From a virus, in the IMG/VR virus record IMGVR_UViG_3300020030_000229, positions 1 to 5,136 of that record: a stretch of DNA of 5,136 nt. The stretch is one strand, 5' to 3'. Shown here piece after piece: positions 738 to 3,293 of this stretch. Under the pieces are notes generated by a model. That model was given only the letters and a program-made list of their open reading frames with translations. It ran no database searches and was not told where the DNA came from. Position numbers and translations under genes: made by a program. How positions within the stretch are numbered: the first letter of the stretch is position 1; every line of letters begins with the position of its first letter.

Positions 738-754
738 GGAAAGGATTGTATGTT

Positions 755-1378
755 ATGCTTTATGGTATCCTTATCTTTTGCATTTGCTGGCTTTTTGTTT
801 ATATCGATAACTATTGCAAAAACCCCTATAAGTTGGAAGCTGTTGTTGGTTCAAAAGGCTCTGGCAAGTCTCTGTATATGTCTCGTGTTGCTGATAGGTG
901 GCTTCGTTCTAATAAGGGGCTTATCTATAGTAATATGGGTATTGGTTATGAGTTAGAGCCGGAATATTGGAAACAGACCTTTGTCCCTGATTCCCTTATT
1001 CTTATTGATGAGATAGGCGTTTTGCACTCTAACCGTGATTTTAAGACTATGCCCCGAGATGCAGTTGAGTTTTTCAAAATGCAGCGTAAGTATCACCTTA
1101 CGATTATTGTATCGTCTCAGACTATGGATTTTGACAAAAAAATTCGTGATCTCTGCGACCGTATTTACCTTTGTAACCGCATTGGCTGGTTCTGTCGTCT
1201 CACTCCTTATCGCTCCTGCATTGCTATGGAACATCGCCCCGAGGGAGGACAAGAGCTTGTCAACACGGTGCGCAAGGCAGGGCGGGCACGGTGGTATACC
1301 ATTCCCAAGTCCGTGAAGCGGGTCAGTGCCTTAGAATACGATACAGAGCAGGTTATTAGCAAGTCCCCTTCCAAGTAA
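755..1378 (+). CDS. Zot / pI-like P-loop NTPase (filamentous-phage assembly ATPase), short form with an N-terminal hydrophobic segment
   Basis: Walker A is GSKGSGKS and Walker B is LILIDE(IG), with spacing as in the Zot/gene I family. The in-frame ATG at 755 lies 9 nt after GGAAAGGA (738-745). The track's start at 746 is a TTG too close to that Shine-Dalgarno. The N-terminus MLYGILIFCICWLFVYI is hydrophobic. Stop is TAA 1376-1378. Confidence 0.8.
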   Translation: MLYGILIFCICWLFVYIDNYCKNPYKLEAVVGSKGSGKSLYMSRVADRWLRSNKGLIYSNMGIGYELEPEYWKQTFVPDSLILIDEIGVLHSNRDFKTMPRDAVEFFKMQRKYHLTIIVSSQTMDFDKKIRDLCDRIYLCNRIGWFCRLTPYRSCIAMEHRPEGGQELVNTVRKAGRARWYTIPKSVKRVSALEYDTEQVISKSPSK

Positions 1379-1385
1379 AAAAAAA

Positions 1386-1435
1386 CTTCCCCCCGTGCCC
1401 TTTAGGGTTAGGGGGGTTGTTTTTTTTATTTTTTT
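1386..1435 (+). terminator. Rho-independent terminator after the ATPase gene (bidirectional architecture)
   Basis: CCCCCC (1389-1394) pairs with GGGGGG (1411-1416). There is an inner CCCT/AGGG helix and a 3x3 internal loop. An A-run (1377-1385) precedes it and TTGTTTTTTTTATTTTTTT follows. Confidence 0.7.
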
Positions 1436-1470
1436 AAAATCTCGAGAAATTTTTGATTTTTTGGGGAAAC

Positions 1471-1641
1471 TTCGCAGGCAGTTGCCACGTTTAGTCACGC
1501 GATAGCGTCTCCACCGCGTCCCCCGTCTCCGCAAGGGCAAAGCCCTTGCCCTTCCAAAACATGCTGGTAGGGGCTTCCGACATGTAGTGTCTGCCGTGAC
1601 GGCGGGAGCCGGTGGGCGTGCGTGTAATACGCCCACCTTTT
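1471..1641 (+). other. GC-rich, hairpin-dense, ORF-free intergenic island: candidate replication origin(s) and packaging signal, and/or a structured small RNA
   Basis: Hand count gives 105 G+C in 170 nt (62%), set in an otherwise T-rich genome. Hairpins: GCAAGGGC-AAA-GCCCTTGC (1531-1549, 8 bp perfect); CTGCCG-TGA-CGGCGG (1591-1605); GGTGGGCGT-(9 nt)-ACGCCCACC (1611-1637, 9 bp perfect). CGTCTCC occurs as a direct repeat at 1506-1512 and 1524-1530. No + strand ORF longer than 8 codons starts at an ATG here. Confidence 0.55.
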
Positions 1642-1650
1642 ATTAATTTT
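1611..1650 (+). terminator. Strong terminator-like hairpin at the 3' edge of the GC island
   Basis: A 9-bp perfect GC-rich stem (1611-1619 / 1629-1637) has a 9-nt loop GCGTGTAAT and is followed by TTTTATTAATTTT. The T-tract is on the + strand side only. Confidence 0.6.
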
Positions 1651-1653
1651 CTC

Positions 1654-1682
1654 TTGACAGCTCCTTCATATTGTGGTAACAT
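1654..1682 (+). promoter_or_regulatory. Near-consensus sigma70-type promoter for the rep-ssb operon
   Basis: TTGACA (1654-1659), a 17-nt spacer, then an extended -10 TGgTAACAT (TG at 1674-1675, hexamer at 1677-1682). The predicted transcription start is near 1689. Confidence 0.65.
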
Positions 1683-1715
1683 TTAGCCATGGAAATGAAA
1701 GGTGGTTTTTTTCAT

Positions 1716-2852
1716 ATGAAAACGGTTGTTAAGCTTGATTATGCTACGTTCGCTTTTGAGCATGGTTCAATTTCTATTTCCGAAATCGAAGATGCTCTTG
1801 CTCAGTGCGACTTACATTTTTCGCAGACTTCCAACGCAAGTGAGAATTCCCCATACAATTCCCCTGCGGGCCTTTTCTTTAAGCCGAACAACGGCGCGAA
1901 ACAGTCTCCGCACTCCTTGCAAGTGTCTGGTTATGGTTGTGAGCTTTTCCGTCCCACATTGCCGCGTCTCGCGTCACTGATGCAGGATGGTCATGAATTT
2001 GGCCACTTTTCCCGTCTTGATTTTTGTTTTGATGTTGTTATGACTAAGCAACGTTGGCGCGAGTTCTATTTAGGTGTTATTTCTGCTTCTGTCGATGAAA
2101 TGAATTACCCTGAAAAAGCCCGTAAGGTTCGCAAGTTCATGTATCAAGGTTATGGTGATTCTACTACTGTTTATATCGGTCGTAGAACTTCATCAGCGGT
2201 TTTCTGCCGTATCTATAATAAATCTTTGCAAGACCCTGAAAAGAAGCTCTGTACGGCTTCTGGTGAGTTTCTGGATTGTCCTGATGATTCCTATATTATT
2301 CGTTACGAGATTGAATTTAAATTTACTTCGCGTGTACGTTCTGGTTCTCGTTCCGTCTATGACCCGTCTCCGCTTTTCTGGTTTTATTATGAAGACCCTG
2401 AAAAGCTTTTCTCCTATCTCCGTAAAGTCTGGAATCGTTACGGAAATGATATTCTTCTTCCCGATGGTTGGGAAGATATGCAGTTCGTGACTGATATTGA
2501 TGCGCGCGGAATTCATTACACTGATGACTTTTTGCATCCCCTTAGTGATGATCTTGCTAAGAAATTTTCCGTTTCTATCCATACCGAAGAACAAAAGATG
2601 TCTTATGTCGTAAATATTTTTGGTCATCGTATCATTGATATTTTGCTTTATCGTCCTGAGTTGCTTTTCCTCGCTTGTTGCAAGTGGGAGCAGTTCTATA
2701 ATGAGCGTCTTCCGTTCTCACCTCTTGCGCTTGCACAGGAAGTCGCCCAGTTCTCTGAATCCTCGCGCATTGCCGTTGAGGAATTCCATGAAGTTGCTGA
2801 TGACCCTTCTCCCTTTAGTGAAGTCGGGTTTGATGATATATCTTTATTCTAA
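1716..2852 (+). CDS. Rolling-circle replication initiator, Rep_trans-like family (pT181 RepC / phage replication initiation factor type)
   Basis: Motifs recalled from the Rep_trans family appear in order: N-terminal KLDYATFAF, SLQVSGYGCELF, FSRLDFCFDV, VYIGRRTSSAVFCRIYNK and IIRYEIEFK. AAAGGTGG (1698-1705) lies 10 nt before the ATG at 1716. The ATG at 1689 opening the track ORF sits at the predicted transcription start and would be leaderless. Stop is TAA 2850-2852. Confidence 0.8.
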   Translation: MKTVVKLDYATFAFEHGSISISEIEDALAQCDLHFSQTSNASENSPYNSPAGLFFKPNNGAKQSPHSLQVSGYGCELFRPTLPRLASLMQDGHEFGHFSRLDFCFDVVMTKQRWREFYLGVISASVDEMNYPEKARKVRKFMYQGYGDSTTVYIGRRTSSAVFCRIYNKSLQDPEKKLCTASGEFLDCPDDSYIIRYEIEFKFTSRVRSGSRSVYDPSPLFWFYYEDPEKLFSYLRKVWNRYGNDILLPDGWEDMQFVTDIDARGIHYTDDFLHPLSDDLAKKFSVSIHTEEQKMSYVVNIFGHRIIDILLYRPELLFLACCKWEQFYNERLPFSPLALAQEVAQFSESSRIAVEEFHEVADDPSPFSEVGFDDISLF

Positions 2853-2870
2853 TGAAAGGATGGTCGCTTT

Positions 2871-3113
2871 ATGAAAGTTACTGTAGTTGGTAAGTCCCGC
2901 CGCGCTGGTACATCTAAGCAGGGTAAAGACTACGATTTTACTACTATCATGGCCGAATATTCGATGCGTGCAAACGATGACAATGATGGCGTGCAGGTTG
3001 ATAGAATCAATGTCGATGCTCGCATGATGCCGTATGCGCTCATTGTCGTCGGCACTACGTATGACCTTGACTTTGACCGCAACGGATATCTCCTTGGAAT
3101 CGAGGAAGTCTAA
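2871..3113 (+). CDS. Gene-V-like ssDNA-binding protein (80 aa)
   Basis: Its size and position directly after rep match gene V. The N-terminal MKVTVVGKSRRAGTSKQGKDYDF resembles Ff g5p ...TTRSGVSRQGKPYSL (shared G-S-QGK-Y pattern, from memory). AAAGGA (2855-2860) lies 10 nt upstream of the ATG. Confidence 0.65.
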   Translation: MKVTVVGKSRRAGTSKQGKDYDFTTIMAEYSMRANDDNDGVQVDRINVDARMMPYALIVVGTTYDLDFDRNGYLLGIEEV

Positions 3114-3168: not shown

Positions 3169-3172
3169 ACAT

Positions 3173-3246
3173 GGCGGGGTAGTGCAATGGTCGCATGTCA
3201 CACTCTGAATGTGAAGCTGCTGGTTCGAATCCAGACCCCGCAACCA
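3173..3246 (+). tRNA. trnQ: tRNA-Gln (anticodon CUG), 74 nt, with genomically encoded CCA
   Basis: Hand-folded cloverleaf:
- Acceptor stem GGCGGGG / CCCCGCA, with G1.A72 unpaired.
- Positions 8-9 are TA.
- D stem GTGC / GCAT, with D loop AATGGTC containing GG.
- Anticodon stem TCACA / TGTGA, perfect, with loop C-T-CTG-A-A (U33 and purine 37 present).
- Variable region AGCT.
- T stem GCTGG / CCAGA, with position 49-65 G.A, and canonical T loop TTCGAAT.
- Discriminator A, then CCA. Confidence 0.85.
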
Positions 3247-3293
3247 AAACGGACTGACCTCCGTTATTCGATGTCGCGAAAGGTGGTGGCGAA

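Follow-up and report, generated by a model that had tools for sequence, protein, structure and literature searches.

The DNA analysed here (the window) is the whole 5,136-nucleotide (nt) stretch of IMG/VR virus record IMGVR_UViG_3300020030_000229, and it raises the question of what kind of element occupies positions 1471 to 1641, a GC-rich island that lies just upstream of a replication gene and ends in what looks like an intrinsic terminator. The window is the circular, 5,015-nt genome of a small inovirus-like (filamentous) gut phage with a CTXphi-like RstA/RstB-type replication module, its first and last 121 bases being identical (terminal redundancy). An earlier reading of the letters alone (the sequence-only reading) took as its default the inovirus intergenic region, with origins and packaging signal, and raised as an alternative that the block is a separate gene for a small structured RNA, equipped with a terminator. 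Comparison with related genomes supports the default and refines it. The island is very probably an ordinary kind of element, the non-coding, cis-acting replication region of a filamentous phage, built of two separable modules: a 3' hairpin (1611-1637) that is specific to the replication protein (Rep), and a 5' block, module A, that is Rep-independent. It belongs to a familiar class of element, in a group of phages that has been little studied. The cis elements of filamentous phages comprise a Rep-specific plus-strand origin, a minus-strand origin read by the host, and a packaging signal.

The description of the island given by the sequence-only reading stood up well to measurement. Its GC content is 61.4%, against 44.1% for the genome, and only 9 overlapping windows of 4,845 exceed that value (maximum 62.6%, at 1463), while the A/T tract said to precede it (1417-1465) has 18% GC. 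The stable hairpins are present (five, listed in Table 1), as is the CGTCTCC direct repeat, which has a third near-copy, CGTCCCC, between the two exact ones. Folding of the island beats dinucleotide shuffles on both strands, with z = -2.8 as DNA, -3.3 as plus-strand RNA and -3.6 as minus-strand RNA. The rep promoter was correctly placed just 3' of the island, and no conserved open reading frame (ORF) crosses it: ORFs are found on the minus strand only (1331-1636 and 1491-1682), without a Pfam match, and these were rejected as genes since they match no family and 1- and 2-nt indels in close relatives break the frame. Terminator-like sites do flank it, at 1397-1417 and at 1611-1637 (followed by TTTTATT); the T-tract of the second is not conserved in relatives.

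The comparison set consisted of about 105 related genomes. Protein-anchored scans of IMG/VR retrieved contigs of about 5 kb, 25 with Rep and 37 with Zot, and a metagenome scan with the module-A core pattern gave 80 loci, about 70 of which belong to this clade, as circular contigs of about 5 kb from the gut. Typing by tblastn divided the replication proteins into four types: T1, the type of the window (74 genomes); T2, about 40% identical to T1 and matching Rep_trans at 28.7 bits (15 genomes); T3, a 278-aa protein with a faint Rep_trans signal only and a different gene order (10 genomes); and T4, a 184-aa protein with Rep_OBD (PF01719), of the pMV158 RepB family, at 77 bits (7 genomes). The Zot proteins of the relatives are 91-97% identical, and it is the replication module downstream that differs. 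Such swaps of Rep type provide a test of which parts of the island accompany Rep, and the two halves of the island assort independently among genomes of differing Rep type. The four replication modules occupy one place 3' of Zot, equivalent to 1557-3113 of the window (L027, L032, L035, L043, L044, L046, L049, L051, L055); genomes with swapped modules have near-identical structural genes, and each module has its own sequence between module A and the promoter.

The 3' hairpin accompanies Rep. Its motif TGTAATAC, at 1623-1630 across the loop and the junction with the 3' stem, has a single plus-strand copy in each T1 or T2 genome with terminal redundancy, always in a hairpin just 5' of the rep promoter, and none in any T3 or T4 genome; the chance expectation is about 0.08 per genome. 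Since the metagenome set was fetched by the module-A pattern, this association with Rep type is not an artefact of ascertainment. The stem takes 22 forms among 68 distinct sequences with pairing kept in all of them, including GGTGGGCGT/ACGCCCACC, CGTGGGCGT/ACGCCCACG, GGTGGGGTGT/ACACCCCACC, GTGGGTGT/ACACCCAC, TGCGGGGGT/ACCCCCGCA, GGCGAGGG/CCCTCGCC, GCGGAGG/CCTCCGC and TTCGGGG/CCCCGAA. Compensatory changes were found at 4 pairs, and 97% of cells in the alignment are paired. The 3' half of the loop, (C/G)TGTAATA(C), is invariant across T1 and T2 despite the divergence of their Reps, and together with the 3' arm it forms the best-conserved non-coding stretch, with a pairwise identity of 0.95-0.97, where the third codon positions of zot and rep reach 0.74. 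T1 and T2 are unlike each other 3' of the hairpin, in sequence that overlaps the rep promoter. T4 genomes have a different hairpin at the corresponding place, with the loop GGGCTACGTCTTA, which resembles the pMV158 nick sequence TACTACG/AC, suggesting that each Rep type brings its own nick hairpin. On this comparison, hairpin 1611-1637 is most likely the site at which a pT181/CTXphi-like initiator nicks the plus-strand origin.

A hairpin followed by a T-run could instead be a terminator or insulator and nothing else, shielding the rep promoter from read-through, with the plus-strand origin elsewhere. In the window the site does look like a good intrinsic terminator, with a 10-pair stem containing 7 GC pairs and then the T-run, and in one relative that lacks the Zot operon terminator (L119) the hairpin would be the sole terminator before rep. 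The T-tract is not a conserved property, however: of 57 distinct T1 variants 40 have it, and the 11 T2 variants all lack it; the other 17 T1 variants read AAATTG and similar, and the closing pair changes along with it. A terminator needs the T-run and ignores the loop, while a nick site at an origin depends on the loop and on a stem that can be extruded; here the loop is conserved and the T-run is not, so the nick-site reading fits and the terminator does not. Nor would a terminator need the TGTAATAC loop and 3' arm to be the most conserved part of the region, or its motif to track T1 and T2 while being absent from T3 and T4 genomes with the same upstream operon. A separate terminator already lies 3' of Zot, at 1397-1417, where 1378-1401 forms an inverted repeat with 1404-1427; it is found in most relatives, though not in L119 and L123, in which the Zot stop adjoins the conserved block. 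We therefore consider the terminator-only explanation very unlikely, and termination by the hairpin to be at most a local side role. An anti-Shine-Dalgarno element, in which 1633-1644 would be complementary to the rep Shine-Dalgarno region (1694-1705), was also entertained, and was dropped because the complementarity is lost in the AAATTG variants.

Table 1. Features in and around the GC-rich island, in window coordinates (strand as in the window; a point marks a feature without strand).
Feature	Position	Strand	Description
Zot/pI-like assembly ATPase	746-1378	+	Pfam Zot
Upstream (Zot/pI-like) operon terminator	1378-1430	+	A-run, GC hairpin, T8 run; terminator scan site 1397-1417
AT-rich variable spacer	1431-1475	.	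Not conserved, pairwise identity 0.12-0.13; cargo-gene insertion hot-spot in relatives
Hairpin H1	1477-1486	+	GGC-AGTT-GCC; variable, dispensable
Module A, Rep-independent conserved core	1488-1556	+	H2, three C-rich repeats, H3
Hairpin H2	1497-1508	+	ACGC-GATA-GCGT; TAGCGT at 1503-1508
C-rich repeats	1506-1512, 1517-1523, 1524-1530	+	CGTCTCC, CGTCCCC, CGTCTCC
Hairpin H3	1531-1549	+	GCAAGGGC-AAA-GCCCTTGC
Module B, variable linker	1557-1610	+	Two alternative sequence forms; includes hairpin 1591-1605 (CTGCCG-TGA-CGGCGG)
Candidate plus-strand origin nick hairpin	1611-1637	+	GGTGGGCGT / GCGTGTAAT / ACGCCCACC; resembles an intrinsic terminator here
T-rich tail	1638-1650	+	TTTTATTAATTTT; source of the terminator look; not conserved
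rep promoter	1654-1682	+	TTGACA (1654-1659), 17-nt spacer, TG-extended TAACAT (1677-1682); promoter scan 10/12 matches with TG
Rep_trans-type replication initiator	1716-2852	+	378 aa from ATG 1716; Shine-Dalgarno AAAGGTGG at 1698-1705

The gene behind the promoter encodes, by its sequence, a Rep_trans-type initiator. Translation most likely starts at ATG 1716 and not at ATG 1689 of the longest ORF: the Shine-Dalgarno sequence (AAAGGTGG at 1698-1705) points to it, the match to PHROG 27843 covers 378 of 378 residues, and in the longer ORF the first residues to align with relatives are 7-9. PHROG 27843, which Rep matches over its full length, is annotated as a replication initiation protein. Rep also matches Pfam PF02486 (E = 1.4e-6), and BLASTP aligned it with pT181 RepC at 30% identity over 106 aa (E = 9e-4), with RLD, TxYxG, RIYNK and RxEIE in register. 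By the Rep_trans motif definitions of PMC5714925, the catalytic motifs are in the expected order, with Q replacing E in motif III. The TTGACA of the rep promoter is invariant among T1 relatives.

In the pT181/pC221 family, whose plasmids are AT-rich, Rep_trans initiators make their nick at the tip of a conserved stem-loop rich in GC (IR-II/ICRII), behind which comes a plasmid-specific binding repeat (PMC4797284, PMC5062986), and the nick sequence is family-wide while the binding site is replicon-specific (PMC4797284, PMC5062986, PMC1851628). The phage resembles these plasmids in its Rep_trans initiator, whose four catalytic motifs align with RepC, in being an AT-rich replicon whose candidate nick site occupies the loop of a GC-rich inverted repeat, and in a loop motif that is common to diverged Reps with replicon-specific flanks. 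The pT181 IR-II, as read from NC_001393, is AACCGGCTA-CTCTAA-TAGCCGGTT, and the T-N-TAATA of its CTCTAATAG is also present in the phage loop, a likeness that we take as resemblance and not as proof. Unlike that of pT181, which lies inside the rep coding sequence, the phage origin would lie 5' of rep beside its promoter; its stem sequence is unrelated, no ICRIII-like repeat (about 23 bp downstream of the nick in pT181-type origins) was found, the replicon is filamentous, and Rep has about 180 extra C-terminal residues.

CTXphi offers a comparison among filamentous phages. Its RstA nicks between G and T in an apical hairpin loop within a 167-bp ori(+) (PMC4439123), and a review classes the initiator in the Rep_trans family (PMC5714925). 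Both phages are filamentous and encode a Rep_trans-family initiator followed by a small RstB-like protein, for which the match in the window is weak (PHROG 929). The ori(+) of CTXphi, in ig-1, is like the island in its extent (about 167 bp) and in its several inverted repeats, and the apical-loop G/T nick has a counterpart in the G-T within TGTAATAC. The origins themselves, however, share no detectable sequence similarity, no XerCD-type attP or repressor module was seen in the phage, and its likely host is a member of the Clostridia (Oscillibacter-like) and not a Vibrio. The order of elements also recalls the Ff phages (M13/f1/fd), in which the terminator of the last gene is followed by single-strand elements, a plus-strand nick hairpin and the promoter of the replication gene. 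In Ff, however, gpII belongs to the HUH enzymes and its nick sequence is different, the packaging signal is a single long hairpin and the minus-strand origin mimics an RNA polymerase promoter; neither of the latter is evident in the phage.

Several observations weigh against assigning the plus-strand origin to hairpin 1611-1637. The PF02486 score of Rep, 28.5 bits, is just below the gathering cutoff of 29.6, and a PDB sequence search with Rep gave no match. No clear ICRIII-like Rep-binding inverted repeat was found downstream of the hairpin; any such repeat would have to overlap the rep promoter and would then point to autoregulation. One contig with a T1 Rep (L031, 91% identical) is without the hairpin. 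It has no terminal redundancy and carries an insert of about 300 nt that in another genome (L040) is followed by the hairpin, so that a defective genome or a misassembly is possible; L140, the other contig that lacks the motif, is broken within the region and is hence uninformative. What the comparison shows is that the modules vary with Rep type, that sequence and structure are conserved, that Rep belongs to the Rep_trans family and that features of an RNA gene are lacking; the nicking at 1611-1637, its exact position and the particular role of module A are inferred from it.

The same comparison bears on the proposal that the island is a stand-alone plus-strand gene for a small structured RNA, ending at an intrinsic terminator at 1611-1645. 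Such a gene would account for the TTTTATT that follows the hairpin on the plus strand only in the window, for a plus-strand RNA fold better than that of shuffles, and for covariation in two hairpins. Covariation in the aligned relatives is indeed real in H3 and in 1611-1637, but pairing in single-stranded DNA or a cruciform explains it equally well: 2 of 11 helices are supported, and the changes, almost entirely from one Watson-Crick pair to another, are compatible with DNA hairpins. The minus strand folds equally well, which points to inverted DNA repeats and not to a strand-specific RNA. Most helices of the minimum free energy (MFE) RNA fold are unsupported, and the long-range MFE helices of both RNA and DNA (for example 1517-1530 with 1596-1608) were rejected, having no covariation support and being impossible in T3 and T4 genomes. 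The earlier remark that TTGATT has no matching -10 was borne out, and a promoter scan of the window found none for the island; in many relatives there is no room for one, the T-run of the Zot terminator or the Zot stop itself adjoining module A. An Rfam scan of the whole window at E <= 10, as that reading had recommended, returned nothing in the island and passed only the tRNA described below. Loss of the T-tract from 17 of 57 T1 and 11 of 11 T2 variants, with an invariant loop, is the reverse of what a terminator needs, and the 5' and 3' halves of the supposed gene are combined with Rep types independently of each other, and about 300 nt can come between them. An RNA gene is thus most improbable, and its proposal goes unsupported.

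Module A is found beside all four Rep types and is the only non-coding block that they share. Its pairwise identity is 0.92 in all T1 genomes and 0.89 in the 14 protein-retrieved genomes, which is near the level of first and second codon positions and compares with 0.74 at third positions. Of the 8 pairs of H3, 4 have compensatory changes, and 99.6% of cells are paired (CAAGGG/CCCTTG becoming CGAGGG/CCCTCG, CAAAGG/CCTTTG or CAAGAG/CTCTTG), whereas H2 never varies and is therefore neither supported nor contradicted by covariation. Being the only non-coding block common to all four replication types, module A would be a minus-strand origin, a packaging signal, or both. Some 120 nt separate it from the nick hairpin downstream, and such a distance upstream of the nick site is a typical spot for minus-strand origins, both in Ff and in rolling-circle plasmids.

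The porcine Inovirus record MT135307 allows these two roles to be weighed. Its module-A core is 86% identical to that of the window over 44 nt, with H3 swapped for another hairpin, CACGC-GTTA-GCGTG, at the corresponding place. Its Rep is of type T3, its Zot, coat and SSB-like proteins are 37%, 30-33% and 31% identical to those of the window, and its other virion proteins have no similarity detectable by tblastn. Since the core is fixed while the phage proteins diverge, module A is more likely to be read by a host enzyme, which favours a single-strand origin. An inovirus packaging signal is a plus-strand hairpin that suffices for encapsidation by the cognate assembly proteins. The rival view is that module A is a packaging signal read by the phage's own assembly proteins and not a minus-strand origin. 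It is consistent with the Rep-independence of the block, with a covarying hairpin (H3) within it, with its restriction in IMG/VR to genomes with the same Zot (93-97% identical), and with its position relative to the other elements, the Ff packaging hairpin lying directly 3' of the last-gene terminator. In MT135307, however, the core does not change in step with the virion proteins, which points instead to a host factor as its partner, and the hairpins of module A are short (4-8 bp); the hairpin at 689-733 is more like the Ff packaging hairpin, though it may be a coat-gene terminator. We judge the packaging-signal-only view unlikely, though worth keeping in mind, and tentatively read module A as the minus-strand (single-strand) origin, the likeliest single role, though one to which we give slightly less than even odds. 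By analogy, the block possibly also is, or overlaps, a packaging signal.

Other points count against reading module A as a host-read origin. The part used as search pattern cannot vary in the sequences drawn from metagenomes, having served to retrieve them, although the protein-anchored subset still gives 0.89. Recombination in these genomes is rampant, and conservation in MT135307 could reflect recent transfer rather than constraint by a host factor. Among known single-strand origins, ssoA of Gram-positive rolling-circle plasmids is the closest in several respects, module A likewise being Rep-independent, fixed in orientation and just upstream of the double-strand origin, in a phage whose host appears to be a Firmicute. 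In an ssoA, the CS-6 hexamer sits in a hairpin loop, and host RNA polymerase makes a short primer on the folded single strand. The RSB sequence and the CS-6 hexamer TAGCGT of ssoA were taken from PMC4598088. TAGCGT occurs once in the genome, across the loop and 3' arm of H2 in the most conserved block, and about 1.2 occurrences are expected per strand by chance, so that its reading as CS-6 is suggestive at most. The RSB (TTATGCCGAGAAAATTT) was not found, the best match near the island, 12/17, being in the non-conserved spacer at 1437; of 200 shuffles, 103 reach 12/17 or better. Module A as ssoA was rejected for want of the RSB, and it differs further in consisting of short hairpins and C-rich direct repeats where ssoA has a paired structure of about 160 nt. 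A 'distant' search of the island against PLSDB plasmids gave chance matches only (E >= 0.2), so that module A, unlike ssoA, has no similarity to any plasmid there.

Two metagenome contigs (L093, about 2250-2350, and L111, about 3170-3260) are CRISPR arrays, with the repeat GTCGCGCCCCTCGCGGGGCGCGTGGATTGAAAT and a spacer matching module A. L093 also has type I-C-like cas genes, among them a Cas8c 98% identical to that of the metagenome-assembled genome Oscillibacter sp. UBA11510, and this proximity of the matching array to an Oscillibacter-like Cas8c makes an Oscillibacter-like bacterium of the Clostridia the probable host. The module-A core, scanned as an exact pattern against 185,579 species genomes, gave no match, so that no prophage or host copy was found. 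We would further suggest, more speculatively than for the minus-strand role itself, that module A represents an undescribed class of host-read single-strand origin in filamentous phages of the Oscillospiraceae (Clostridia), with two short hairpins flanking three CGTC(T/C)CC repeats and unrelated to ssoA, ssoU, ssoT and ssoW. It would be a portable cassette behind which at least four unrelated Rep/nick-site modules can be swapped in, and important enough to be a CRISPR target.

These elements can be placed in a tentative scheme of replication. In the supercoiled replicative form, the GC-rich inverted repeat at 1611-1637 would be extruded, and the Rep_trans initiator would cut the plus strand within the exposed TGTAATAC; in pT181-type origins such a cut leaves Rep covalently bound to the 5' end. 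The free 3'-OH at the cut would prime rolling-circle synthesis, and cutting and religation of the regenerated hairpin would release a unit-length single strand. Module A would then act on the displaced or packaged plus strand, whichever Rep is present, with a host enzyme laying a primer there for synthesis of the complementary strand. In this genome the hairpin and T-run may also stop read-through from the upstream operon, a local and non-conserved effect.

Filamentous phages of Gram-positive gut anaerobes are abundant in metagenomes and almost wholly uncharacterised. The analysis predicts a precise plus-strand origin, with the nick within TGTAATAC of hairpin 1611-1637, and maps which non-coding pieces accompany Rep and which do not, while the CRISPR spacer match suggests Oscillibacter as host. 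Together these results should suffice for designing minimal replicons or phagemids for such bacteria and for marking the origins of related contigs, of which there are hundreds. They also caution that a hairpin and T-run beside a rolling-circle rep gene should not be taken as the end of an RNA gene.

The rest of the island and its surroundings is less constrained. Module B has a pairwise identity of 0.69-0.77, near neutral, and both of its forms occur across T1 and T2; its helices are weakly supported (65-92% paired, with mostly one-sided changes). In L040 it is split by a non-coding insert of about 300 nt, so modules A and C (the nick-hairpin module) need not adjoin. Structured non-coding inserts of about 250-320 nt are present in several T1 genomes (L040:3545-3860, L031:1-300, L081, L088, L102, L122, L140), placed on one side or the other of the nick hairpin, after module B or before the rep promoter, and contain several hairpins, AT-rich inverted repeats and more C-rich repeats of the CCCCGTCC type; that of L088 is apparently flanked by repeated AAATTTCCTC. 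H1 is replaced by GGAG-CA-CTCC in many relatives and is gone in L119 and L123, and 79% of its cells pair. The intergenic region between the Zot and Rep genes is 310 nt long in the window and 251 to 853 nt among relatives, the longer ones holding minus-strand ORFs with a strong promoter of their own. Many relatives have one or two such small ORFs (78-88 aa) between the Zot terminator and module A (L044:158-676 on the minus strand, L027, L046, L051), one with a weak DUF7661 match and the other with none, and the near-consensus minus-strand promoter adjoins module A. They may be cargo or moron genes.

The sizeable ORFs of the genome are all on the plus strand, which is T-rich (35% T), and follow the order Zot, intergenic region, Rep_trans-type initiator, an 80-aa protein (the weak RstB-like match to PHROG 929), tRNA-Gln(CTG), a 386-aa protein and several small membrane proteins. 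In GenBank the nearest phages, about 5 kb long, are entered as unverified porcine 'Inovirus sp.' records, with about 80% identity across roughly half of the genome. A phage segment corresponding to window 4309 through the origin to 2545 opens a 50.7-kb metagenome contig (L077:606-3850). Its use as a prophage to locate attP was rejected, as homology simply ends inside rep (window 2545) without a clean junction; the contig could be a chimeric assembly, an integrated remnant, or a variant in the Rep C-terminus, as in L030 and L083, where the match ends near residue 286.

The tRNA-Gln(CTG), at 3173-3246 on the plus strand between the SSB-like gene and the 386-aa gene, is complete with an encoded CCA, and was found by Rfam (49 bits, match 3173-3243) and ARAGORN. 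It and module A are the sole stretches with nucleotide similarity to the distant porcine inoviruses MT135307 and MT135309 (84% for the tRNA), and translation, integration and priming are candidate roles for it. The hairpin at 689-733 is near-perfect, with 20 bp (GAGAAAACGCCGCCGACCAT-TTTTA-ATGGTCGGCGACGTTTTCTC), and lies 3' of a 50-aa coat-like ORF (530-682) within one of the best-conserved 60-nt windows (0.935). Termination behind the major coat gene is its probable role, and it is also a candidate packaging hairpin.

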